NCBI GenBank assembly: GCA_016219285.1
Contig: JACRNJ010000006.1
Location: 4,988-68,987 of the forward strand
DNA from: Deltaproteobacteria bacterium
Lineage (GTDB): Bacteria > Desulfobacterota > GWC2-55-46 > UBA9637
Length of the DNA: 64,000 bases
Reading direction: 5' to 3'
In this document: positions 878 through 63,840 of the stretch, in pieces
Numbering within the stretch: position 1 is the first letter of the stretch
How the letters are laid out: every line of letters starts with the position of its first letter
Notes under the pieces: generated by a model
Told to the model about the DNA's origin: nothing
Seen by the model: the letters and a program-made list of their open reading frames with translations, nothing else
The model's database searches: none
Program-made: the position numbers and the translations under genes

Positions 878-2151
878 ATGATTTCCGTTGAAGCGGCATT
901 AGAAATAATCTTAAATGAAATAAAAACCCTTGGTATGGAAAGGGTAGATATTCTTTCAGCCCTCGGAAGGGTTCTTGGTGAGGATATATCTGCCGCCGTA
1001 GATAATCCGCCCTGGGATAATTCTGCAATGGACGGCTATGCTGTAAGGATGGCAGATACTAAAAAAGCGTCAAAAAACAAACCAGTAATCCTCAGTATAA
1101 TAGAGGACCTGCCGGCCGGTTATACGGCAAAGAAAAGTGTTAAAAAGGGAGAGGCGATAAGGATAATGACCGGAGCACCAATGCCAATAGGCGCTGATGC
1201 AGTGGTGATGGTGGAGGAGACAGAGAGGCAAGAGGCAAGAGGCAAGAGGTCAGAATATTTAAAGAGGCAAAGATTGGCGATAATATCCGAAGGGCCGGCG
1301 AGGATTTCAAAAGTGGCGATATTGTCTTAACAAAAGGCGCAACCATACGGCCTGCTGAAATCAGCATGCTTGCGGCAGTTGGCAAGCCTAATGTTTATGT
1401 GCATCAAAGGCCAAAGATCGCTGTGCTCGCAACAGGGGATGAGTTGGTAGAGATAGAGGAAAAGCCTGCCAACGGCAAAATAATAAATAGCAACAGCTAT
1501 GCCATATCTGCCCAGATAAAGGCATGCGGCGCTATACCTGTTCAGCTCGGTATTGCCAGAGATAATAAAAAAGACCTTGAGAAAAAACTTGAGTTTGGTC
1601 TGACGGCAGACTGCATTGTATCATCCGGCGGCGTTTCCGTAGGAGATTTTGATTTTGTAAAGGATGTTTTAAAGGGGATGGGCTCTGATCCCCGCTTGGG
1701 ACATGCGGGGACAGGGATGCGTTTCTGGAAAGTGGCGATGAAACCCGGTAAACCCCTCGCCTTCGGCGTTATTGCAAACAAACCTGCATTTGGCCTGCCG
1801 GGAAATCCCATATCGTCAATGGTTGCATTTGAACAGTTTGTAAGGCCAGCCATCTTAAAGATGACAGGAAAAAAAGATATTTTCAAGAGGGCATTTGAAG
1901 CGCTGCTCACCAAACCTATAAAGAAAAAATCAGGCAGGATGCACTTTGTAAGGGCGGCCATTGAACAAAAGAATGGACAATTTTATGCCACACCTCTGGA
2001 GGGTCAAGGCTCCGGTATGTTGAGAAGTATGGTAAAGGCCGATTGTCTCATTATACTTCCAGAAAACATCCAGGACATAGAAAAGGACTGTAAGGTAAAG
2101 GTTCAGCCTCTGGGTGAGAGCCTTTTGTATCAGGATAAGCCGGGATATTAA
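878..2151 (+). CDS. moeA: Molybdopterin molybdotransferase MoeA, interrupted by a frameshift inside an (AGGCAAG)3 heptanucleotide repeat; ORFs 878-1330 and 1366-2151 are the N- and C-terminal parts
   Basis: The N-terminal ORF has the MoeA N-domain (PPWDNSAMDGYAV...GADAVVMVEETE). The shifted frame continues with the conserved VRIFKEAKIGDNIRRAGEDFKSGDIVL...GGVSVGDFDFVKDVL region. A fourth repeat copy (+7 nt) would restore one continuous frame. Confidence 0.8.
1226..1246. repeat. Perfect heptanucleotide tandem repeat (AGGCAAG)x3 inside moeA
   Basis: Read directly from the sequence: aggcaag aggcaag aggcaag followed by agg. Confidence 0.95.
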
Positions 2152-2408: not shown

Positions 2409-3458
2409 ATGTTTAAGACCATAGAATGGCAAAACAACAACGTTATCATGATAGACCAGAGGCTTTTACCAAACGAGGAGGTCTACCGAACATATAAAGA
2501 TTTCCTTGATGTTGCAGAGGCTATTCGTGAGATGGTTGTGAGGGGCGCGCCGGCAATAGGCGTTGCGGCAGCAATGGGAGTTGCATTGGGCGCTCTTAAA
2601 ATAAATGCAAAAGACCGCAAGGGGTTTGTAAAAGAATTTGAAAAGATTTGCAAGATTATGGCCGGCACCCGCCCAACAGCAGTAAATCTGTTTTGGGCCA
2701 TTGAAAGGATGAAACGGGTTGTAAAAAAAAACCATAAACTCAGCGTGGATGAATTAAAACAAACACTTATTCAAGAGGCACAAAATATTCACGAACAAGA
2801 TATTGAAATAAACAAGGAGATGGGTAGACATGGCAGCAAGTTGATAAAAAACAAGGCTACTATTCTTACGCATTGCAATGCAGGCGCATTGGCAACCGCA
2901 GGATATGGCACAGCCCTCGGAGTAATAAGGGCGGCGGTTGAACAAGGGAAAAAGATAAAGGTCTTTGCGGATGAGACAAGGCCATTTTTGCAGGGTTCAA
3001 GGCTTACAGCGTGGGAACTTATGAAGAACGGCATAGATACAACTCTTATCACGGACAATATGGCAGGCTACATGATGAAGAAGGGGCTGATAGATGTTGT
3101 TATTGTAGGCGCTGACAGGATTGCCGCCAATGGAGATACTGCGAATAAGATAGGAACGTATTCAGTTGCAGTTCTGGCAAAGGAGCATAAAATCCCCTTT
3201 TATGTTGCAGCTCCCATATCCACTATAGATTTAAACATAAAACATGGAGATAAAATTCCGATTGAGGAAAGGAATATAAGAGAAGTAACGCATATAAAGG
3301 ATATTCCCATAGCCCCTAAGAATATAAAGGTAAAAAATCCTGCCTTTGATGTAACACCCAATAGACTGATAACAGCCATCATCACAGAAAGAGGCATTGC
3401 CAGAAAATCATTTGAAAAGAGTTTGAAAAGGATGGTCAAAGCTGACAAGATTTTCTAA
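2409..3458 (+). CDS. mtnA: Methylthioribose-1-phosphate isomerase (eIF-2B alpha/beta/delta-like family)
   Basis: 349 aa. The sequence has family motifs ([55 protein letters not shown]). Confidence 0.8.
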
Positions 3459-5988: not shown

Positions 5989-6239
5989 AAAAACACCTCT
6001 GACCTTAAAAGATTTAAGTTGTAAGTTATAAGATTAAAGTTAGAAGAGTTTTTTACTTAAATCTTTTACCCTTAATCTTAAATCTTATTTTTATAATGAG
6101 CAAAGGTTATTGTAACAATATGTCTGTTATTGTCAATATATTCTCCTAATCCGCTATAGCGATAGCGGGATTTACAAACTAAAATTACTGAAAGATTATT
6201 CTTGAACCGATGACGGCTCTTCTTGTAGAATGAGATGCA

Positions 6240-6851: not shown

Positions 6852-6933
6852 AAAAACTGGCAATTGGCCATGGGCAATAGGCTACAGGATTTTCCTATCA
6901 CCTCTTGCCTCGTGCCTATCGCCTATCTTTATT

Positions 6934-7599
6934 ATGATTGCAATTATTGATTATGACATGGGAAATTTGAGGAGTGTGCAGAAGGGTTTTGAAAGGGCCG
7001 GACACCCGTGCATTATCACCCGAGACTCAAAAGAGATTTCCAATGCAAGCCATGTGGTGCTGCCTGGGGTTGGCGCCTTCAAGGATTGCATGGACAATCT
7101 CAAAAACTACGAACTTGTAGACCCCATACTTCTTGCCATTAAATCAGGCAAGCCCTTTTTGGGCATCTGTCTTGGACTTCAGCTCTTATTCTCAGAGAGT
7201 GAAGAGTTTGGAAGGCATGAGGGGCTTGATGTTATCAAGGGAAAGGTAAAAAAGTTTCAAGTTTCAAGTTTCAAGTTTCAAGAAAATGAAACCAAAACTA
7301 CTTCAACTTGCAACCTGCAACCTACAACTCTAAAGATTCCCCACATGGGCTGGAACGATATAAAGATAAAAAATAGACCGCCTGTATTGAAAGATATTCC
7401 AGACGGTTCTTATCTATATTTTGTTCATTCATATTATGTTGTGCCAAAGGATGACAGTGTTATAGCAACAACAACATCCTACGGAATAGACTTTGCAAGT
7501 AGCATATGCAAGGACAATATCTTTGCCTGCCAGTTTCACCCTGAAAAAAGCCAGAAGATTGGGCTGCAGATATTAAAAAATTTTGGTGCTATGAAATAA
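6934..7599 (+). CDS. hisH: Imidazole glycerol phosphate synthase glutamine amidotransferase subunit HisH, with a ~27-aa internal insertion encoded by heptamer tandem repeats
   Basis: Class I GATase motifs are present (GVGAF, GICLGLQLL, HMGWN, CQFHPEKS). The segment KKFQVSSFKFQENETKTTSTCNLQPTTL is an insertion between conserved blocks. Confidence 0.85.
   Translation: MIAIIDYDMGNLRSVQKGFERAGHPCIITRDSKEISNASHVVLPGVGAFKDCMDNLKNYELVDPILLAIKSGKPFLGICLGLQLLFSESEEFGRHEGLDVIKGKVKKFQVSSFKFQENETKTTSTCNLQPTTLKIPHMGWNDIKIKNRPPVLKDIPDGSYLYFVHSYYVVPKDDSVIATTTSYGIDFASSICKDNIFACQFHPEKSQKIGLQILKNFGAMK
7254..7330. repeat. Two blocks of heptanucleotide tandem repeats inside hisH: (GTTTCAA)x4 at 7254-7281 and (CAACYTR)x4 at 7304-7330
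   Basis: Read directly from the sequence: gtttcaagtttcaagtttcaagtttcaag ... caacttgcaacctgcaacctacaactc. Confidence 0.9.
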
Positions 7600-7685
7600 A
7601 AATACCGTGAGTCGTAAATGGTGAGTAGCGCGTGCTAAAAAGCACATTAACTGCTTACAACTTACGACTTACAACTTACGACAAA

Positions 7686-10835: not shown

Positions 10836-12110
10836 TCATCCCCTTTGCAAAGTGAAAATGTCACTTTTCTGTTTTTGAACAGGGTATTTTTGCAGCAATC
10901 TTGTTATTGGTTCCGGTAAAGTATTTAACATCCTATCCGGTTTGGAAACTGTTTTCAGCTCTTTGACATTCAGATAGTACTCCTTATATTTGATATAGAC
11001 TGTAGAATCCAGTCTTACCTCTACAGTTACTTTAGCCTTTGCATAAGAATATCTTCTACCATCCGGAAGTATCTGGAATATACGGTTCTTAAAAGAAAGG
11101 GTATTGTCAGCCATTACCGTTCTTTCCTCCCTGACAGAAAAGACCGCATCCATATCTACATGATTTGGGAGTGGTCTATAGGCTGGGGCTGCCTCTTTAG
11201 GAGATATTGCAAACTTTGAATTATATTTAGGCAGGAATGTTTTATGGAGGTATTTATTGGCATCTTTGATATTTGATATGCCCATGACCCTCATCTCCTT
11301 AAGAAGCCTGTCCTGAAAGGTTTTAAAGAGCCTTTCTATGCGGCCTTTTGCCTGAGGGGAGTTTGCCAGAATAAGATTTATCCCTATCTCAGAGAGCGCC
11401 ATTTCAATCTGTGTAGGCTCGTAAATACCTGTTAGATTGACACTGTAAGAAGAGTGGCGGGTAGTCTTAAAATGGCTTGCCCTATCTACATAAAAGGCAG
11501 CAGGCAAGCCCTTGTTCAGGATAAGTTCCCTCATAACCTGCATATTGTTAACGGTAGAGTCGGAATCTACGAATAGGGCATATGGGACTTCACCTGTAGC
11601 ATCATCTATGGCAGCAATAAGGGAGGCAACAGGGGCTCTGCCAAAAAACCAGTCATGTTCAGATGTGTCCATCTGGATTAAGAGCCCTTCCCTCGGCATT
11701 CTATCCCTCCTGGCGCGGTGTTTGGGGCGCTTTCTTGATTTGGTTCTTAGATTTGCATTGAGAAGGAGTGTCCTTATAAACTCTCTGGACACAGAGATGC
11801 CATGTTCCTCTTCGAGGGTCTCTTTAAAGTGGGAGCAATTATAGTCCTTATATGTGTTGGAATAGAGGTTTAAGATGGTTTTCTTTACAGGGGCAAGAAT
11901 AGCGATGCAAGGGACATTCCCCTTATTCCCATGGACAACTCCCTTTATGCCGTCTCTCTTGACTTTCTTTCTAAGCCTTATTACTTGTCTTACAGAAAGG
12001 TTTAACAACCGGGCTGCCTCCTTATTCTTTAATTTACCATCTAACAAATCCTTAATAATAGAATGTTTTGTTATCTCTTTCTGACTCAAAGTGATTACCT
12101 CCTCCTTCAT
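10836..12110 (-). CDS. ISNCY-family transposase (N-terminal HTH, integrase/rve catalytic core)
   Basis: 424 aa. The N-terminus matches IS1202/ISNCY transposases (MKEEVITLSQKEITK...AARLLNLSVRQVIRLRKK). A DDE-type integrase core is implied by the family. Confidence 0.8.
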   Translation of the reverse strand: MKEEVITLSQKEITKHSIIKDLLDGKLKNKEAARLLNLSVRQVIRLRKKVKRDGIKGVVHGNKGNVPCIAILAPVKKTILNLYSNTYKDYNCSHFKETLEEEHGISVSREFIRTLLLNANLRTKSRKRPKHRARRDRMPREGLLIQMDTSEHDWFFGRAPVASLIAAIDDATGEVPYALFVDSDSTVNNMQVMRELILNKGLPAAFYVDRASHFKTTRHSSYSVNLTGIYEPTQIEMALSEIGINLILANSPQAKGRIERLFKTFQDRLLKEMRVMGISNIKDANKYLHKTFLPKYNSKFAISPKEAAPAYRPLPNHVDMDAVFSVREERTVMADNTLSFKNRIFQILPDGRRYSYAKAKVTVEVRLDSTVYIKYKEYYLNVKELKTVSKPDRMLNTLPEPITRLLQKYPVQKQKSDIFTLQRG

Positions 12111-12188
12111 ATATCCCTCATGGTTATTTGATTATTATTTGATTACCTCCTCCTTCATATATCCCTCATGGTTATTTGATTATTATTT
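12093..12188. repeat. Perfect 48-bp tandem duplication covering the transposase start codon and RBS
   Basis: gattacctcctccttcatatatccctcatggttatttgattattattt is repeated twice back to back. Its reverse complement contains aaggaggaggtaatc, which is the transposase RBS plus ATG. Confidence 0.9.
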
Positions 12189-12336
12189 GACCCAGGAAGG
12201 ATACCTTAAATCTTACGGAGGTGACATTATCACTTTGCAATAAAAGGTGACATTATCACTTTGCAACTACATAAGATAAAACAAGCCTTGACAAAAGCGT
12301 AATATTTTTTTAATATTATTTTTTAATATTTTAATA

Positions 12337-16016: not shown

Positions 16017-17162
16017 CTAAAATAGTTTTTTTATTTTCTCCTCTGCAAATATCTGTGTAATTTTTTCTTGCTCTAGTCTGATATTATTTTGTCGCAAATG
16101 GTTGTAAAGCTTCACCTCTGATTCTGAAAGTCGTTGCAAAGTTTGATTTGTTGCCAGCCTTCCTTCTCCGCTTTTGAAATTTGTCAAAGTTTCTTCATCC
16201 ATCATTACAGCAATCGTGTTCGTGAAATATGTCCTGAACTGATTGAGAATTTGAAAGCCTTGCGCATCTAAATCTCCCCAGTAGTAAAACTGTTTACTCT
16301 TTAACCAGTCAATGTCTTTAAGGTAACTCACACTAAAACCGCCGCCGCTCCAAATTGCAATTGTTTTTGTCAAGCAGGGAAGGGTAAGAAAATTCATTAT
16401 ATTCTCCGCAACAAAGATGTTGTCGCAATGAGAATGGAAGTTGCTGAACTCAGAAAGTGTCAATGAAATGTCAGTTGCCGTTTTTATTGGAGAGAACCGG
16501 TTATCCAAAAATCTAATTCTGATTAACGGCTCTGCATATTTCAAATTGAATCGCTTTTCAAATTTTCTTTCGTTTTGATTTATACTGTCTGGAATCAAAA
16601 ATTCTAAAAGTGATTGAATGATACTTTCGTTTTCGGAAATGTATTTCGTATGGATGTCAATAGGCAATTGTCTGATGTATAAATCAGGTTTTGGATTTTC
16701 TAAGAAATACCTGCAAACTTTCAAGGTGTCAAACCATGTGTCGTGTTCAATCAACCTTATCGGGTTTGCTTTTATCCATTTGTGAAGCGCAGGCAATTCC
16801 TGAATTATCATTGAATGATTTTTCAAAAATATTCCATACCCTTGTTCCTTTCCCACAATCCGCAAGTAATCATCAATGCTTTCTACAATAATTTTTTCAG
16901 GAACCTGCTGCTTGCCGATTTTATCAAACTGTCTTTCTGCCAAAATTAATTTGTAACCAAGTTTTTTATTTTCTTTTGAATGGCTTTGCAATAAGCAAAC
17001 AGAATCTCTGTAGGCAGAAAGATTTTTTAAAATATCTTTTGAATTTATTTTTCCGATTCTATTTATCTCTTTGGGGAAATATGAAAGAGAATTAGATGCA
17101 GAAAGCAAAACATCTTTCCACCATCTTAAACACTGCCCTTGTATTTCCTTCGGAGTTATCAT
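16017..17162 (-). CDS. jetD: Wadjet system protein JetD (DUF3322 + DUF2220/Toprim-like)
   Basis: 381 aa. The C-terminal YWGDLDAQGFQILNQFR toprim-like motif is characteristic of JetD/MksG. It is the last gene of the four-gene jet operon. Confidence 0.7.
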   Translation of the reverse strand: MITPKEIQGQCLRWWKDVLLSASNSLSYFPKEINRIGKINSKDILKNLSAYRDSVCLLQSHSKENKKLGYKLILAERQFDKIGKQQVPEKIIVESIDDYLRIVGKEQGYGIFLKNHSMIIQELPALHKWIKANPIRLIEHDTWFDTLKVCRYFLENPKPDLYIRQLPIDIHTKYISENESIIQSLLEFLIPDSINQNERKFEKRFNLKYAEPLIRIRFLDNRFSPIKTATDISLTLSEFSNFHSHCDNIFVAENIMNFLTLPCLTKTIAIWSGGGFSVSYLKDIDWLKSKQFYYWGDLDAQGFQILNQFRTYFTNTIAVMMDEETLTNFKSGEGRLATNQTLQRLSESEVKLYNHLRQNNIRLEQEKITQIFAEEKIKKLF

Positions 17163-20100
17163 CAGTTCGTTTCCGTTATTTCAATCCTATTGATGAGCGC
17201 ATTGTGTAAATATTTTTGTTCTTTGTATTCCTCAACTGTCAGGTTCTGCAATTGGGAATTGTTCCCGTCTGTGTTGGATACATAATGAACAGAATTTATG
17301 TAATTCTCAATCACATGAATTTTTTGTAACGGAGTTACAATCAATAATTGCAAATTCAGTTTTTTGAAAAGTCCTAACCCGAATTGGGTGCTTTCGTCAT
17401 CACCCCTGCCAAATGCTTCATCAATAACTACAAAACGGAATGATTTGCTTCTCGGTTCTCCATAGGACAAACCAAACTGATACGCTAATGCAGAAGCTAA
17501 AATTGTGTATGCTAACTTTTCTTTCTGTCCGCCCGACTTTCCAGATGTGCCTGCGTAAAACTCCTTTTCTGAATCATCTTCCAAATATTTTTCGCTTGCA
17601 TTAAAGATGAACCAGTTTCTTACATCAGTAACTTTATTCGTCCATTCAATTTGTTTGCTGTCATTGCTGCTGAAACGGTCTAAAATATTTTTCACTTGTG
17701 TAAATCGGTCTTCCGTGTAGGCATCGCTTGTTCCCAAAATGTTGCTGTAACATTCTTTCAACTCTTGTCTGAACTGTTTTATTTCTTGGTCAGAGTTTCT
17801 ATCGTCCAATAATTTTATGTAAGTGCCTTTGTTGAATTCAATTTCTTTCAAGTGCTTATTTATTTCTTCAATTTTCTTTTTGATTGATTTGAAATGATTA
17901 TCCAACTTACTGTCAAAAGCAACAATATCGTTGATGGTATTTTCATTTAACATTTTTTTGAATCGCGCTTCATGTGTTGGCAAACCATCCTTAAGAATTT
18001 TATTCAGCTTATCTAAGTATTCTGCTCTGCTTTCAATTTCATCAGATAACTCCATTGAATCGGAAGGAAACTGATTTTTGTATTCCTTCATTTGCTTAAT
18101 GATTTTATCTCTAACACTGCTTTGTTTTTCAGTAACAGATTTTCTTTCCTCATTTTTTAATTTCAAAAAATTGTCTTCGGCCTTGTCAATGTTTTTAACA
18201 GTAAGTGAAGTGTCTTTAAGTTCTTCAGCAATTTTAGGGTAGAAGGATTCTCTTTCGTTTTGCAGCAGAGTTGCTGCTATTTGTTTGCATTCCTCAATTT
18301 CTTCCCTGTTCTCTTTTGTTTTTTCATCAAACTTTCCTTTATCTTCCAATCCTTGTGTTTGTTGCTTTTCTAATTCACCAATTTCATTCTGAACAATTTT
18401 TAATTGTTCTTGCAGCGTTTTTAAAATATCATTGCTGCTTTCTAAATTCTTTTTCTCCATCTCCAATTTAGAAATTTCCTTTGCTTCATCTTGCCAATTC
18501 AACTCATTCCAGTTGGTATAAGCAGTTACTAAATTGAGTTTGGTGTTTAAAGTTGTGTTCTTGCCGATTTCTGTTTTCAGTTTTCCTAATGCTTCATCAA
18601 TTTCCTTTTTCTCTTTTCGTAATTCATTCAAGTGTTTTTCAACTGCAAGTATTTTTTCCTTGTTCGTCCAACCTAAAACAAAATTTCTTCTATCCCATAA
18701 TTCCCTGCGGTCGTCCTTTGTGTGTCGTTGGCTTCCTGTCTTAAATTGTCCTTCTTTTGTAATTACATCACTCTGTCTTTGAAATTCTTCTAATGGAACA
18801 CATCTTAAATTGAATCGCCTTTGTAGTTCTGCCTGCAACCATTCTTCAAAAGGGGTGTCGGTTTTAATATCAATTTTATTAACGACTGAATCAGTGTCAA
18901 TATCATTTTGAAAATTATTCAGTTTGAAATTGTGAGACGCTTTAAAATATTCAAACCTCATTCCCCTGTTCTTATTATCTTTCAACTTCCGTGCATTAAC
19001 ATATTCACTTATCTGCCTGTAATGTTTTTCAGGAACTAACATACTAATGCCAAATCCTCGCAGCAATCTCTCTAAAGCGCCTTCCCAATCTTTTTCACTT
19101 TCATTTACTTTTAGCAATTCACCCGCAAAAGGAATTTCTTCTTCTTTAATTTCTAAATCGTTTGCTAACTGCTCACGGATGTTTAATATCTCCAAAGGAA
19201 TTTGATTTACTCTGTTTTTAAGAGACTCTAATTCTTTATTTTCCGATTCAATATTTTCATCAATCAAAGATATTTTACCAATTAATTTTCCGTGTTCTCC
19301 TAAAATTATTTGTTGTCTGTTTTCCAGCTCGCCGATTTTTTGCTTAGCTGATTTCAAATTTGAATAAAAAGTTTTCTCGGCATTTGCCGTTGGCAAACCA
19401 CAAACAGAAGTGAGTTCGGAATATAACTCATATTTTCCTTTTTTTGATTTCTTATCCTTTCCCCTCTGCTCAATTTCATAGGCAATTTGTTTTAACCTTG
19501 CCCCTCCATTGTTATCAATGTCCTGGCTGATTTGATTCTCTGCCTTTCTTTTTATTTTTAATCCTTCTTTTATTAGAGAAAGTTGGGTTGCGAGTTGATT
19601 TAATTTTCCTTCGCACAATTTTATTTCTTCTTGCAGCAAGTCAACTTTCTTTGAAGCAAACCAGCTCGGAATAGATTGAACAATATTATCAATCTCTTGA
19701 ATTAGCCTTTCAAAATTTCCGAAACTTTCACCCAATTCCACTAATGGTTTTAAAATATCCCTTTGCCTCCGCGCCTCTTGTACGGCTGCATATGCCTTAT
19801 TCAAATCATCAAAGCGTTTTTTGAGTTCATCAATTTGTGTTTTTATTTCAGTTCGCTCCAACATTTGCTCTCTAACAAATGCTGTCAGACTGCTGACTGA
19901 TTTCATTGAAACAGTTTGATAAAACAGGTCAATTGCTTTATCGGAATTCATTCCGAATAAATGACGAAACCTTTGACTGTATTGAGAAAAATTATCGTCA
20001 AACAATTCAATGAAAGAATGTGCTTTTAATTTCTTTCTTAACCCTCTGGCATCTTCAATGTCGGTGAAATATTCTTTTATCGTAAGCGGGCTGCTGCTGA

Positions 20101-20558
20101 TAATTAAAAGTTTTTGCGGTTTGTCATTTTCAATCCAAAACACTTGTCCTAAGGTGATGTTGGTATTGTATCCGATATTATTAAAGTTCGCCAAGATGAC
20201 TGTGAAAGTTGAATCAGTTGAGTTGGTATAACGAAGTGAAACGGCTTTGCCTTTCAAATCAAATTCATCCCTTTCAAATTTGTAATAACCTTTGATATTA
20301 AGAAATAAAATTACGCTCTTTCTTTTCTGCGTTTGCAGCTTTATTGAAATTGATAGTATGGTGTGGAACTATTAAGCAGGTAAGCGCATCAACAAGAGTG
20401 GATTTACCCGAACCAATAGAACCTGTGAGTAAGGAATTATTTCCGTTTGGCTCAATTCTCCAAATTTTGTCATGAAAAGTTCCCCAGTTTAGCAGCTCCA
20501 TATATTGCAAGCGGAAACCTATTTGTGAGTTATCTCTATTGAATTCAAGTTCTCTCAT
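17162..20558 (-). CDS. jetC: Wadjet SMC-like ATPase JetC, interrupted by a +1 frameshift; the 86-aa N-terminal Walker A fragment is 20298-20558 and the main body is 17162-20257
   Basis: The N-terminal fragment carries TGSIGSGKSTLVDAL. The body frame stays open upstream of its nominal start and reads ...KGYYKFERDEFDLKGKAVSLRY, contiguous with the fragment after a 1-nt slip in the T-run tttatttctt. The body is a long coiled-coil with C-terminal ABC signature and Walker B-like motifs. Confidence 0.75.
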
Positions 20559-21124
20559 TCGGCTGTTTGACTTGCATAATTTTTTAGTTTCTCCAATGAA
20601 TCTTTTACTACATCAGCATTTATAAACGCCTTTATGATTCGGTTGATTTCGTATTGCTCATCATCTGTTTTCATCTTGCGTAAAAAACCCTCATCAATCA
20701 CTCGTTTAATTGCCGCTTCAATTTGTTTTACTTGGTTTGCTTCGTTAGTTGATTCTTTGTAAAATGGTTTTATCATATTCAGAATTTCATCTCTGGTCAA
20801 AACCGCTTTTGTTGATTCGCCTTCGCTGTCGTTTTCTATCAAATGTTTCCTAAGCAGCAAACACAAAAGCGAAACATGAAAATTAAGCTGCCTTTTCTCA
20901 ATAAGTTTTGGTGTTTCATCTTCGCCGTCTTCGCTTACTCGTTGTTTCAAATAAGCATATCCTTCGGGTTTGTCAATAATTACATCAAGATAAATGTCGG
21001 TAAAATATTTCTTGATGTCAGATTCATACAATAAAAGTTCATCCCAAATTTTTTCATTGTGATTGTAAACGATGCCTTTCAGCAAGGCAATTAATATGTT
21101 TGTATACGGTTTGTTCATCGGCAA
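20555..21124 (-). CDS. jetB: Wadjet system protein JetB (DUF4194-like)
   Basis: 189 aa, acidic small protein. It sits between JetA and JetC with ATGA-type overlaps, which matches the size and operon position of JetB/MksE. Confidence 0.65.
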   Translation of the reverse strand: MPMNKPYTNILIALLKGIVYNHNEKIWDELLLYESDIKKYFTDIYLDVIIDKPEGYAYLKQRVSEDGEDETPKLIEKRQLNFHVSLLCLLLRKHLIENDSEGESTKAVLTRDEILNMIKPFYKESTNEANQVKQIEAAIKRVIDEGFLRKMKTDDEQYEINRIIKAFINADVVKDSLEKLKNYASQTAE

Positions 21125-22545
21125 AATATAATTTGAGGAATTTTTACTTTGAAGTTTTTATTTGTTTTTGAATTTTTGATGTCAATAAAATCATATGAAC
21201 TTTCATCAACTATATGTTTGTTCTTTTCCTTTGACGCAATTTCAAGATAAGCCACAACTTCTACAACGCCTTTTTGTATTTCAAACTCTCTCACAAATTC
21301 AGAAAAAGAAATTTGCGACTTGTGTTTCAAGGCGGTTTTTATTTTGTCTTTCAATTCTGCAATATCTATTTCAAATTGCTCAAATAGTAAATCATTGTTG
21401 CTTGTTGATTTTCCTTCTTCGGGATTGTTGTTTGCGAATTTTATTTTCTGCGGTGGATTGAAAAGAGGTCTGTCAACAATCAAGTTAATGTCTATCGTTT
21501 CGTCCAACTCTAACAAAGAAAGTTTGCTGAAATCCATTTCAGTATTTTCGCTGATAATTTTTAAGGCCTCGGTAATGTTGTCGTGAATACGTTTGTTGTC
21601 AAGAAAAGATTTATGCTCTAAATATTTTCGGAGTTGTTCCAATAATGAATTTGTTGTCTTGTTGGTTTTGTCTCCTGCATCAATCAAGTTGTTTCTGATG
21701 TTGTCAATGCTGAAATTTTCTTTTTGAAGTTGTTGAACCACCGGTATGCCCAACACCTCATCAATAAGTTTTTCAAATTCGTCTTGCTTGGATTGCGATA
21801 AAAGAAACTCCCAAAAGGCAATGAAACTTTTTCCCTGGTCTGTTTCTAATAAAAAATCCTGCTGCTGAAAAAGTTCTTCCAGCACCTTTCCTTTTGCCTG
21901 ACTTGTTGTAATAATTTTCTTTCTGAAATTTCTGTCTAAGTCACGGAAGTTTTGTTCTACTTGCCTGAAATCAGCCAATAAATATTTTGCTGTTTCTTCA
22001 ATGAGGAAATACTGCTCTTTAATTTGCCTGTCGTCAAGCAACTCCATTTTGCCGCGCTTAACATCTTCAATTTCCTGTTCAATGCCTTTCTTCTTTGTTT
22101 CCAATTCCTTAATCCTCGCTGCAAAATCTCTTTTTGTTTTGGAAGATAGCTCTTTTAGTTGTTCAAAAAGGTTTTTCAATCGTGATTCCGTTCCTACAAA
22201 TTCGGGTTTGTCTAAATCGTCAATCCACTTCAAAACGTTTTCAGCCGCAGGTGTTAATTCGTAAATCGGTTCGTCATTAGTGTAAAAATACTTTCGCAGG
22301 AACCCAGAGTTTGTCCAGTCAGTTAAATATTCCTTTGGCTGCCTTGAATATCTATTTTCACCTTGGTTGGTAATGTAAAGATGATCGGTTAAGAGCGATA
22401 TGAGGTCTTTCTCTGAAAAGGTGATAAGGTTACTCTGTTTGTATGACTTGAAAAGAAAACTAATAATCAACGGGGCATTGTCGGCAGTTATGAGTTTAAT
22501 TGTCGTATTGGCTTTGAGTAGTTGATATATTTTTTCAAAAGTCAT
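21115..22545 (-). CDS. jetA: Wadjet system protein JetA (DUF3375-like)
   Basis: 476 aa. It is the first gene of the operon, and its size and position match JetA/MksB. Confidence 0.7.
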   Translation of the reverse strand: MTFEKIYQLLKANTTIKLITADNAPLIISFLFKSYKQSNLITFSEKDLISLLTDHLYITNQGENRYSRQPKEYLTDWTNSGFLRKYFYTNDEPIYELTPAAENVLKWIDDLDKPEFVGTESRLKNLFEQLKELSSKTKRDFAARIKELETKKKGIEQEIEDVKRGKMELLDDRQIKEQYFLIEETAKYLLADFRQVEQNFRDLDRNFRKKIITTSQAKGKVLEELFQQQDFLLETDQGKSFIAFWEFLLSQSKQDEFEKLIDEVLGIPVVQQLQKENFSIDNIRNNLIDAGDKTNKTTNSLLEQLRKYLEHKSFLDNKRIHDNITEALKIISENTEMDFSKLSLLELDETIDINLIVDRPLFNPPQKIKFANNNPEEGKSTSNNDLLFEQFEIDIAELKDKIKTALKHKSQISFSEFVREFEIQKGVVEVVAYLEIASKEKNKHIVDESSYDFIDIKNSKTNKNFKVKIPQIIFCR

Positions 22546-22872
22546 TTTGTTTTACATATAGTAACAAATTTAGGAATAAATGTCCGCCTTTGTGCGTTGG
22601 GGCAAAAGCAAATGCGGCGCATACCAAAATCAAAATAATAAACTAATGAGCCTCTTTTGCTTTTGTAAAAACGGTAATCAAACGGCTTTGCCGAAATTGT
22701 TTTTGTCGTCTGTGTCCGCTTGTCAAATTTGATGTTTGCATTGTCGTCAAAAAATTATTTATATTATACTATCCGGCGCAAAACAAATAGTCCGATAAAC
22801 AATAGTTTGATAAACAAAAGCCCCTCTCCTCTCATTCCAAAATTTAAAATGAGAAAAGAAGGGCAACGAGTA

Positions 22873-23134: not shown

Positions 23135-23279
23135 GCAACCAAGTAAATAAAACAAACACATGAAATAGAAATCAGGAAAGAGGAAAACAAATTCCTAATT
23201 CCTGATTTCTAAATTGTTTAATGCCGGTTTAAATCTTAACTATATAGGATTGCACTTTTGCCTTACGTCATATTACACA

Positions 23280-23555: not shown

Positions 23556-23723
23556 ACTTTATTCTCCTTCCTTAATGAATTAAATTCTAAATTCTGTAAA
23601 TGCTATAGCAACTTTCCTTAGCCCTGTCAAGCAAATTATACCATTACAAAATAGAAAGGTTAGCCTTTGGATAAACTTTCTTCCTGATTTTATCAAAGGT
23701 AAAATCAACTATCTTGTTAAGGG

Positions 23724-25116: not shown

Positions 25117-25181
25117 TTACGATTTACAAATTACGATTTAACATTCCCAAATCGCAAATTTAAAATCGTAAATCTAAAATT

Positions 25182-57161: not shown

Positions 57162-59393
57162 ATGCCACAAAAACCCTTAAATATTTCCGACAAACAATCC
57201 CTTCTCCAATTCATGCGGGACAAGGCATACAGGCCGCTGTCGTTTAAAGAACTAACCCGCCGAATGCAGGTTCCTAAGGAACAAAGAGACATTTTTAAAA
57301 AACTGCTGAGAGATTTGATTAAGGACGGTCATATTGTAAAGATTAGAGGCGAGCGGTATGGCGTTCCGGCAAAGATGAATCTCACTGTTGGCGAGCTTTC
57401 GTGCCATCCCAATGGCTTTGGCTTTGTTGCGCCTGAAGCCGGCGGAGAGGATATATTTATCAATCCCAGAAATATGAAAGGCGCCATGCACAGGGACAAG
57501 GTTGTGGCAAGGGTTGAAGGCCGCAGCAAAGGCAATGGCAAGAGAGAGGGAAGGATTATAAGAGTCCTTGAACGGGCGCATAAAACCATAGTTGGGAGGT
57601 TTGAGAAGAGCAAGGAAGTTGGGATTGTTATCCCGTCTGATGAAAGGGTTCTGCAGGAGATTATAATCCCTTTGAAAGACATAAACACGATTCAACCTGT
57701 CCTGAAAGGTTTTAATTCAGGAACCGCGCCTGCAAGCAGGCACGAACTTATTCGCGCTATGGAAGGTAAGATTGTTGAGGCAGAGATAACAAGGTGGCCT
57801 GAGGAAAATATTGCCCCTGCCGGAAGGATTATTGGAATTATTGGAGAGCCTGATGACACTGAGGTAGAGATTGAGGTTATCGTAAAAAAATACGGCCTGC
57901 CGCACCGGTTCCCTCATCATGTAATTGCTGAGGCAAAGGGAACGCCGCAGGAGGTTGCGGAGCAGGATATTGCCGGGAGGGTGGATTTACGAAAAAGGAC
58001 TACGGTTACGATTGACGGTGAGACAGCAAAGGATTTTGATGATGCGGTTTCCATAGAAAGAACAAGCAGAGGGTATAAATTGTGGGTATCTATTGCAGAT
58101 GTAGCTCATTATGTGAAAAAGGGAAGTATCTTGGATGAGGAGGCATATAAAAGAGGGACAAGCGTATATTTTCCGGACCGGTGCATCCCCATGCTGCCGG
58201 AGGCTTTGAGCAACGGCATCTGTAGTTTAAACCCAAATGTTGACCGGCTCACCCTTACGGCAGAGATGGATTTTGACCACCACGGCAATATTCTACACAG
58301 TAAATTTTACGAGAGCGTTATCAACAGTTGCGAGAGGCTGACTTATACAAATGTGAAAAACATTCTTGATTCAAAATTAAAGATTCAAGATTCAAAAATA
58401 GAGGCAGACCTTTTATTAATGCAGGAGCTTTGCCTAAAACTCAGGCAAAGACGGGCAGAACTTGGCAGCATTGACTTTGACCTTCCTGAGCCGCAGATTA
58501 TTATTGATATAGAAGGAAGGGTTGAGGATATTGTAAAATCTGAGAGAAATATTGCCCACCAAATAATAGAAGAATTTATGCTTGCGGCAAACCAATCAGC
58601 AGCAGCCTATATTGCCAGATTAAAACTCCCCTTTTTATACAGGATACATGAAAAACCGGATGAAGAGAGCATAAATGAGTTCAAGGAGTTTATCCAAAAC
58701 TTTGGATATCATCTCAAAGGGAAAAAACTAAGTTCTAAGGTTCTTCAGGATTTATTATCGGAGGCAGCAGGCAAACCTGAAGAAAAACTAATCAATCACA
58801 TACTCCTCCGTTCCATGAAACAGGCAAGATATTCTGAAAAAAACATCGGCCACTTTGGACTTGCCTTTGAATATTACACCCACTTTACATCTCCCATCCG
58901 CAGATACCCGGACCTCATAGTGCACAGAATTTTAAAAACAATGATAAAAACAAGATATTCTGAAAAAGATAAAGCATATTGGGAAAAAAACCTGCCTGAA
59001 ATTGCAGCCCACACATCTCAAAGAGAGAGAAATGCCATGGGGGCTGAAAGGGAGATAGTTGATTTGAAAAAGACCCAGTTTATGAAAGATAAAATCGGCG
59101 AGGTGTATAACGGCATTATATCAGGTGTTACCAGTTTTGGCCTCTTTGCAGAGCTTGAGGAATATTTTGTAGAAGGGCTGGCGCATGTTACGAATATGAA
59201 AGACGACTATTATATGTTTATGGAAAAAGAGCATTCCCTTATTGGGGAACATACCAACAAGAGATACCGAATAGGGGATAAGGTAAAGGTAAAAATAGAA
59301 AATGTAAATATTGAGCGGCGGCAGATAGATTTGGCGCTGGAAGGGCAGATTAAAACAGGCAAAAGGCACGAGGCAGGAGGCTATAGAAAATGA
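57162..59393 (+). CDS. rnr: Ribonuclease R
   Basis: 743 aa with N-terminal HTH/cold-shock domains, an RNB catalytic domain (DFDDAVS...) and a C-terminal S1 domain. Confidence 0.9.
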   Translation: MPQKPLNISDKQSLLQFMRDKAYRPLSFKELTRRMQVPKEQRDIFKKLLRDLIKDGHIVKIRGERYGVPAKMNLTVGELSCHPNGFGFVAPEAGGEDIFINPRNMKGAMHRDKVVARVEGRSKGNGKREGRIIRVLERAHKTIVGRFEKSKEVGIVIPSDERVLQEIIIPLKDINTIQPVLKGFNSGTAPASRHELIRAMEGKIVEAEITRWPEENIAPAGRIIGIIGEPDDTEVEIEVIVKKYGLPHRFPHHVIAEAKGTPQEVAEQDIAGRVDLRKRTTVTIDGETAKDFDDAVSIERTSRGYKLWVSIADVAHYVKKGSILDEEAYKRGTSVYFPDRCIPMLPEALSNGICSLNPNVDRLTLTAEMDFDHHGNILHSKFYESVINSCERLTYTNVKNILDSKLKIQDSKIEADLLLMQELCLKLRQRRAELGSIDFDLPEPQIIIDIEGRVEDIVKSERNIAHQIIEEFMLAANQSAAAYIARLKLPFLYRIHEKPDEESINEFKEFIQNFGYHLKGKKLSSKVLQDLLSEAAGKPEEKLINHILLRSMKQARYSEKNIGHFGLAFEYYTHFTSPIRRYPDLIVHRILKTMIKTRYSEKDKAYWEKNLPEIAAHTSQRERNAMGAEREIVDLKKTQFMKDKIGEVYNGIISGVTSFGLFAELEEYFVEGLAHVTNMKDDYYMFMEKEHSLIGEHTNKRYRIGDKVKVKIENVNIERRQIDLALEGQIKTGKRHEAGGYRK

Positions 59394-62037: not shown

Positions 62038-62063
62038 CATGACTATAGGCAGCGACATAAATT

Positions 62064-62132
62064 TGTAGTCTGCCGATTTATCGGCGATTTTAAAATACGC
62101 CCATGGGGCACCAAACAGAAGGTTGGGTCGGG
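62064..62132 (-). repeat. Copy C (inverted orientation) of the palindromic intergenic element family
   Basis: tgtagtctgccgatttatcggcgattttaaaatacgcccatggggc...gggcaaactacag is the reverse complement of the 63668 copy. Confidence 0.65.
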
Positions 62133-63663: not shown

Positions 63664-63667
63664 AGTA

Positions 63668-63840
63668 GATTGCCCATTTATGGGCGTATTTAAAAACGCT
63701 GATAAATCGGCAAACTACAGCGCCTTGCCCTTGACAAACTATCTCCTTTGCCAAAGGCAAAAGAGTTTTGTGTTTTGCTTCGGCAAAACACATAATTTGT
63801 AAAGGGCTTGCATCTTGGAAATTTTTGAGCGTGAACTGCA
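63668..63840 (+). repeat. Copy D of the palindromic intergenic element family, with a ~75-bp internal insertion
   Basis: tgcccatttatgggcgtatttaaaaacgctgataaatcggcaaactacagcgccttgcc ... gcttgcatcttggaaatttttgagcgtgaact matches 2238-2328 across both ends. Confidence 0.7.

Follow-up and report, generated by a model that had tools for sequence, protein, structure and literature searches.

The moeA gene at the beginning of a 64,000-nt stretch of a Deltaproteobacteria metagenome-assembled genome (MAG; assembly GCA_016219285.1, contig JACRNJ010000006.1; the whole stretch is hereafter called the window) is split between two reading frames at a perfect tract of three AGGCAAG heptanucleotide units. With a probability of roughly 0.6, the split reflects a real and recent loss of one unit by slipped-strand mispairing, at a mutational hotspot specific to the clade, and has left moeA as a null allele. 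The enzyme encoded by moeA, molybdopterin molybdotransferase, is responsible for inserting molybdenum or tungsten into the cofactor. In the clade of uncultured groundwater Deltaproteobacteria/Thermodesulfobacteriota to which the organism belongs, the gene carries a short heptanucleotide array within the codons of a surface β-hairpin loop, the functional AGGCAAG-type array comprising four units that encode RQEARGKRQE. One 7-nt unit would have been lost in the sequenced population, most probably by slipped-strand mispairing at replication. Such a loss would shift the frame after codon 124 and stop translation 26 codons on, leaving a 150-amino acid fragment without the rest of domains I and II, the MoCF-binding domain and domain IV. 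The three-unit moeA would thus be a null or near-null allele, reversible in principle by gain of one unit or loss of two. The event may be viewed as an incidental hit at a hotspot created by the genome-wide abundance of heptamers in this clade rather than as the work of a dedicated ON/OFF switch; the data contain no positive sign of an evolved switch. The mechanism itself belongs to a known kind; what is moderately interesting is where it occurs, in a core metabolic enzyme of a free-living groundwater bacterium, with recurrent out-of-frame alleles in two lineages.

Direct reading of positions 1224-1249 on the forward strand gives AG AGGCAAG AGGCAAG AGGCAAG AGG, with the full units at 1226-1246. 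Tandem Repeats Finder (TRF) reports the tract with period 7, 3.7 copies, 100% matches and a score of 52. Two perfect period-7 tracts with 2.5 copies or more are present in the window (here and at 7252-7282), compared with 0.035 per mononucleotide-shuffled window. The 5' part of moeA matches Pfam MoeA_N over positions 1-116 of 160 (E=1e-38) and, after the array, continues as an out-of-frame tail of 26 codons from S125 to a TAA at 1328-1330. The 3' part is conserved from the valine at 1249 (VRIFKEAKIGDNIRRAGEDF...) and, when its frame is read from 1225 to 2148, matches MoeA_N 114-160 followed by MoCF_biosynth and MoeA_C. No single uninterrupted moeA open reading frame (ORF) exists; the gene is split at 1226-1248 between frames 2 and 1. 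The final conserved residues of the first frame, GADAVVMVEETE, end at 1225 and the earliest of the second, VRIFKEAKIGDNIRR, start at 1249; therefore, the shift lies within the repeat. These results bear out the first-pass annotation, which had placed an (AGGCAAG)3 repeat at the frame change of moeA, with the N-terminal domain in one frame and the conserved continuation in another.

The array lies inside the ORF and its unit length is not a multiple of three, so that the number of units sets the moeA frame. In silico, one unit yields a single ORF of 419 amino acids, four units yield 426 and, by arithmetic, seven yield 433; arrays of 0, 2, 3, 5 or 6 units are out of frame. The earlier statement that a fourth unit would restore full-length MoeA is thus correct, and orthologues at 81-83% identity do carry that unit; loss of two units, which that statement overlooked, also restores the frame. 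The frame-repaired 419-amino acid protein matches MoeA_N over 1-160 of 160 (E=3.9e-53), MoCF_biosynth over 1-143 of 144 and MoeA_C over 2-72 of 72. This is the architecture of the MoeA/gephyrin E-domain molybdopterin molybdotransferases, with the same three Pfam domains in the same order, and annotated MoeA/Glp proteins reach 90% identity to it. The window gene differs from that family in its frameshift, in a clade-specific expanded hairpin loop and in a 27-nt palindromic insertion in the MoCF domain. Expression of the 3' part from an internal restart was considered and rejected, since the 3' frame has no start codon before the ATG at 1366, which lacks a Shine-Dalgarno (SD) sequence and would omit residues 118-163 (~46 conserved residues).

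A search with the repaired MoeA returned several thousand homologues, the nearest being MAG proteins labelled Deltaproteobacteria or Thermodesulfobacteriota. The best 120 full-length homologues are all encoded in a single frame, and the two-frame organization is not conserved. Orthologues at 81-83% identity (P0002-P0004, P0006 and others) read ETERQEARGKRQEVKVF through the region of the array. The examination of orthologues for the repeat, proposed with the first-pass annotation, yielded five sister-species contigs from different samples (L001, L003, L004, L006 and L007), all with four units, identical flanks and intact genes. Their array reads ACAGAG AGGCAAG AGGCAAG AGGTAAG AGGCAAG AGGTAAAAG, the third unit having a synonymous C-to-T change, and the four-unit array encodes ETERQEARGKRQEV. 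Two of these contigs, L006 and L007, came from a pattern scan of JGI metagenome DNA that was blind to reading frame and allowed gaps of 0-30 nt between the flanks. They were the only sister-species contigs matched, and both have four units; because of the design of the scan, they are an unbiased though tiny sample of unit number. Since the orthologues carry four units, the window allele reads as the four-unit state less one unit. When the 150-amino acid frameshifted fragment was used as the query, none of the proteins retrieved had its out-of-frame tail.

The loop itself is peculiar to the clade. In outgroup MoeA proteins the TE motif and the V-x-I-F strand are separated by only ~4 residues (e.g. 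TEKDGELVRIF), whereas proteins of the window clade have 10-20 loop residues of many different sequences, and at least 15 distinct intact proteins have loops of the RQEARGKRQE type. At the DNA level the clade loops are period-7 arrays of differing units, such as AGTCAGN (L005), GGGCAAG (L008) and AAGTCAG (L090). In the AlphaFold model of P0002, which has a mean predicted local distance difference test score (pLDDT) of 84.7, residues 117-126 form the tip of a β-hairpin in MoeA domain II (strand 115-118, loop 119-125, strand 126-129) with pLDDT values of ~77-82. This modeled hairpin tip is a site where changes in length should be tolerated. One further protein with a loop of this kind, P0247 (…RQEVKGKTQNL, from a 773-nt contig), departs in sequence after the array.

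The age of the lesion was assessed from the ratio of nonsynonymous to synonymous substitution rates (dN/dS) relative to the closest relative, L002 (GCA_016214995.1), which has 90% protein identity and the same gene order. The values are 0.119 for the N-terminal part of moeA and 0.064 for the C-terminal part, alongside 0.106 for mtnA, 0.110 for proA and 0.235 for the SLT/LysM gene. Both halves of moeA are under strong purifying selection, and neither has any other stop or indel. Because both are otherwise intact and under such selection, the frameshift is either not real or very young compared with the divergence of the species.

The possibility that it is not real, namely that the organism truly has four units and an intact moeA and that one unit was dropped by de Bruijn assembly, bubble resolution or polishing, is unlikely but is retained as a rival explanation. 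An otherwise perfect gene under purifying selection is what would be expected if the gene were truly intact. The three-unit state is known from a single consensus sequence, and no second sequence of the window's own species was found among the matches listed (GTDB relatives at ≤80% identity). Both moeA fragments, mtnA and hisH likewise had no exact match in the contig index, and the protein collection lacks the moeA fragments. Moreover, a four-unit tract of 33 nt would form a 7-node cycle at k ~21, and an assembler that skipped this cycle once should output exactly the 26 nt observed. Against such an artefact stands the length of the tract: 26-33 nt is shorter than any modern read and than the large k of the final assembly rounds, and for this reason true collapse is not expected of assemblers that iterate over k. 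Of 30 other window ORFs checked, none is broken, and each matches its Pfam model over essentially its full length; the window is also free of Ns. Indels are therefore not a general problem of this assembly. The longer perfect array of hisH (31 nt) was assembled in frame, identical to that of another species.

Further evidence comes from an independent contig of another project. The search with the 150-amino acid fragment brought up P0246, an N-terminal MoeA fragment of 125 amino acids that is encoded on the 3.7-kb contig L089 (ENA ERZ27254842) and stops within the same loop. The two halves of the L089 moeA are each 100% identical to intact 417-amino acid proteins (P0033 and P0037). Contig L090 (ENA ERZ27254873) encodes P0033 and comes from another sample of the same ENA series. 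Aligned over 589 nt, L089 and L090 differ at one base and by one gap of 14 nt (99.8% flank identity). L090 has GAT(AAGTCAG)4AGG at 411-439, in frame, and L089 has GAT(AAGTCAG)2AGG at 3349-3363, frameshifted. Thus, four-unit in-frame and two-unit out-of-frame alleles of the homologous array exist within one sister species; in the AGGCAAG sister species, all five contigs have four units. The 29-nt tract of L090 would pass the 7-node cycle of a k=21 graph once, so that skipping the loop should remove 7 nt, not 14. As the 14-nt loss goes beyond a single loop-skip, the two-unit allele of L089 is most simply taken as real. This difference in unit number indicates that slippage at the moeA loop recurs in the clade and can yield frameshifted alleles. 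Given this second out-of-frame allele and the intact remainder of the window, the repeat-collapse error that the first-pass annotation had offered as one of two explanations becomes less likely as an account of the split.

A third possibility is that the split gene is read through. Ribosomes slipping by -1 on U_UUA_AAG (1258-1264) would make full-length MoeA with an altered loop (...RQEARGKRSEYLK-EAKIGDNIRR...). The motif is a canonical X_XXY_YYZ heptamer read in the zero frame, located where the two open frames overlap (1198-1327), and an SD-like AGAGG lies 8 nt upstream of it; X_XXA_AAG motifs are among the more slippery in Escherichia coli. Up to this point the arrangement resembles programmed -1 frameshifting of the dnaX type, which also combines such a heptamer with an upstream SD-like motif in a two-frame overlap. 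It differs in having no downstream stimulator: the fold of 1258-1345 has a minimum free energy of -14.6 kcal/mol (z = +0.79), and 160 of 200 shuffled sequences fold as well. It also differs in lacking conservation, the slippery motif being a by-product of the IFKE codons that is read in another frame in all intact orthologues, so that nothing is conserved for recoding. A slip of -1 would, in addition, replace the conserved VRIF strand (V-R/K-I/V-F) by SEYL, and the deletion of a unit relative to the orthologues explains the frame change. Programmed frameshifting was rejected on these grounds of structure and conservation; recoding as an explanation is extremely improbable, and at best it would amount to low-level leakiness of the mutant allele.

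Period-7 repeats abound in the window as a whole. TRF finds 12 such arrays compared with 1.07 in shuffled sequences (~11-fold), and other periods are much less enriched. Loci of close relatives have 40.6 period-7 arrays per 100 kb, or ~24 when the nine moeA arrays by which these loci were selected are excluded, versus 7.6 per 100 kb in distant loci. The window arrays are mostly intergenic (proA-hisB, hisH-hisA, around the HU gene and pyrH-tsf); two are in frame in hisH, and one is inside an ORF of 748 amino acids. The units vary by locus (AGGCAAG, AAGTTTC, CTTACRA, TTACGAT and others), with a recurring AGGCA core, and AGGCAAG-like dimers have 8 further near-match sites in the window versus 0.6 expected. 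The hisH arrays encode ...KKFQVSSFKFQENETKTTSTCNLQPTTLK ahead of the PHMGWN motif. The perfect hisH array is base-for-base identical in L088 (GCA_016200645.1), which represents another species whose HisH is 86% identical, and the HisH loop before PHMGWN ranges from 3 to ~36 residues across relatives. L088 also has an intergenic (CTTGCCC)x6.3 array at 7446-7489; this is the reverse complement of the GGGCAAG unit in the moeA loop of L008, which suggests that unit families are common to different loci and genomes. As separate observations, the insertion that holds the window's hisH-hisA array is missing from L088, and the pyrH-tsf arrays at 25117-25140 and 25149-25180 are reverse complements that could together form a hairpin.

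Dispersed heptanucleotide families have been described as the STRR of cyanobacteria and the GGGNATC repeats of Xanthomonas and Nostoc (PMC4692102) and as the TAACTGA direct repeats of Beggiatoaceae (PMC4679880). The arrays of the window clade share with them a genome-wide, lineage-specific excess of period-7 arrays of ~2-6 units, a mostly intergenic location near gene ends and the frequent occurrence of four units. They differ in that no single unit dominates and the arrays do not form G-quadruplexes. The known families are also under-represented in coding sequence, whereas here several arrays are in frame in the MoeA and HisH loops.

The other explanation of the first-pass annotation was a switch resembling phase variation, that is, a heptamer array maintained for stochastic, reversible ON/OFF control of molybdenum cofactor (Moco) biosynthesis, with populations mixed for molybdo-/tungsto-enzyme activity. 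Such a switch is quite improbable. In its favour, the array is perfect and its unit length is no multiple of three, and two lineages whose unit sequences differ each have an OFF allele at this loop in an otherwise intact gene. The perfect four-unit arrays that differ by lineage (AGGCAAG, AAGTCAG, GGGCAAG) suggest ongoing contraction, expansion and homogenization. Switching by heptanucleotide simple sequence repeats (SSRs) inside ORFs is known in Haemophilus influenzae, where AATTTTG in hmw1A and AACAACC in the HI1369 homologue have 8-14 units (PMC2651432). As in those genes, a 7-nt tandem unit lies within the ORF, altering the number of units changes the reading frame and cuts the product short, and alleles with differing unit numbers coexist among close relatives (here L089 and L090). 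However, the heptanucleotide SSRs proposed for phase variation in H. influenzae mostly have 6-38 units (PMC2651432), whereas the moeA arrays have only 3-4. In place of a long perfect tract of high mutability, the window has 3 full units (26 nt) and its relatives have 4, often interrupted. The array is located in the middle of the gene, at codon 117, and the gene encodes a cytoplasmic housekeeping enzyme rather than a surface or uptake protein; the window organism is a free-living groundwater bacterium. All five sister-species contigs have the same four units with the same stabilizing C-to-T interruption, no reversion was observed, and the presence of heptamer arrays genome-wide, mostly between genes, needs no selection for switching. 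A literature search for phase variation of moeA found nothing relevant. The choice between a switch and an assembly error was incomplete, the simplest account being a recent incidental slippage at a short SSR hotspot.

Recent slippage with loss of function has its own points of weakness beyond the single consensus sequence and the loop-skip arithmetic given above. The loss of moeA function is read from the sequence, and a second moeA paralogue elsewhere in the genome, if present, would render it harmless. The window itself yielded no moeA paralogue, and there are no Moco or molybdoenzyme genes among the window ORFs scanned. The deposited MAG record, with a contig of 85,918 nt, lists proteins for mtnA (MBI5326845.1) and hisH (MBI5326850.1) and none for the moeA fragments; a protein cluster look-up showed that these mtnA and hisH neighbours occur in one NCBI MAG record only. 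The lack of a moeA protein in the record is consistent with the depositor's pipeline having called a frameshifted pseudogene.

The coordinates of the features discussed here are collected in Table 1. The palindromic stretch in the MoCF domain is a net 27-nt in-frame insertion that is patchy among close orthologues, being present in the window, P0002, P0003, P0020 and P0048 and absent from P0001, P0004 and P0006. The corresponding region of the P0002 model (residues 273-280) is predicted to be disordered (pLDDT <50), and the window has no further copy of the insert. The 257-nt spacer between moeA and mtnA (2152-2408) contains a dispersed element with a core at ~2239-2329 and partial copies at 62063-62104, 63665-63728 and 63807-63837. 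The element is also found downstream of moeA in L003, L004 and L005, and L002 has an unrelated 96-nt spacer; a repeat search found no inverted repeat in 2100-2420. Elsewhere, the window carries a complete Wadjet/Mks-like cluster of four genes and, on the reverse strand at 27168-52842, a large polysaccharide-biosynthesis locus. The latter contains dTDP-sugar and UDP-glucose dehydrogenase genes and encodes glycosyltransferases, at least four B12-binding radical SAM proteins and two more radical SAM proteins, one of which has a SPASM domain. At 12092-12190, a perfect direct repeat of 48 nt (x2.1) lies upstream of, or overlaps, the 5' end of a reverse-strand ORF at 10836-12131 with weak helix-turn-helix matches.

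Table 1 Positions of moeA, the heptanucleotide arrays and other features in the window.
Feature	Position	Strand	Description
moeA 5' part	878-1330	+	150 codons; codons 1-116 authentic MoeA, through ...GADAVVMVEETE; from ORF list and translation
moeA 3' part	1198-2151	+	-1 frame relative to 5' part; open from 1198; stop 2149-2151
Heptanucleotide tract	1224-1249	+	AG + (AGGCAAG)x3 + AGG; site of the moeA frame change
Slippery heptamer T_TTA_AAG	1258-1264	+	X_XXY_YYZ type, regarded as fortuitous; zero frame of broken 5' part; codons TTA AAG
Palindromic stretch GATCCCCGCTTGGGACATGCGGGGACAGGG	1687-1716	+	in frame in moeA MoCF domain; encodes DPRLGHAGTG; most relatives have a single E
Intergenic period-7 arrays	6015-6046, 7654-7682, 23190-23212, 23581-23595, 25117-25180		related units TAAGTTG/TTGTAAG, CTTACAA/CTTACGA, TTACGAT
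AGGCA-core array	6893-6925	-	GATAGGC GATAGGC ACGAGGC AAGAGGT; between hisB and hisH
Perfect (AAGTTTC)x4.4 array	7252-7282	+	31 nt, in frame in hisH (6934-7599 +)
Imperfect period-7 array	7300-7329	+	ACTTGCA/ACCTGCA, in frame in hisH; adjoins 7252-7282
Wadjet/Mks-like cluster	16017-22551	-	DUF3375 (JetA-like), DUF4194/MksE (JetB-like), 1068-aa SbcC/Rad50-like ATPase (JetC-like), DUF3322 + JetD_C (JetD)
AGGCA-core array	59355-59381	+	ACAGGCA AAAGGCA CGAGGCA GGAGGCT; encodes C-terminal tail of 748-aa ORF

A broader proposal, that heptamer arrays in surface loops of core enzymes such as MoeA and HisH act as genuine contingency loci in this clade, is very doubtful. If true, Moco-dependent metabolism would be turned off and on at random within populations as units are frequently gained and lost, and repeated contraction and re-expansion that restore the frame would drive rapid remodelling and homogenization of the loops. 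SSR phase variation would then extend from the surface genes of host-associated bacteria to the central metabolism of environmental ones.

On the favoured reading, a recent and incidental loss of one unit, the moeA of this MAG is a frameshifted and probably non-functional allele, and predictions of molybdo- or tungsto-enzymes for the MAG call for caution. The locus offers a clean example of lineage-specific heptamers colonizing the loops of housekeeping enzymes. Such colonization makes the loops hypervariable and creates recurrent frameshift hotspots, as seen in the out-of-frame alleles of two lineages. If the population contains mixed unit numbers, moeA would become a tractable example of how SSRs can lead an environmental bacterium to lose and regain a core pathway.

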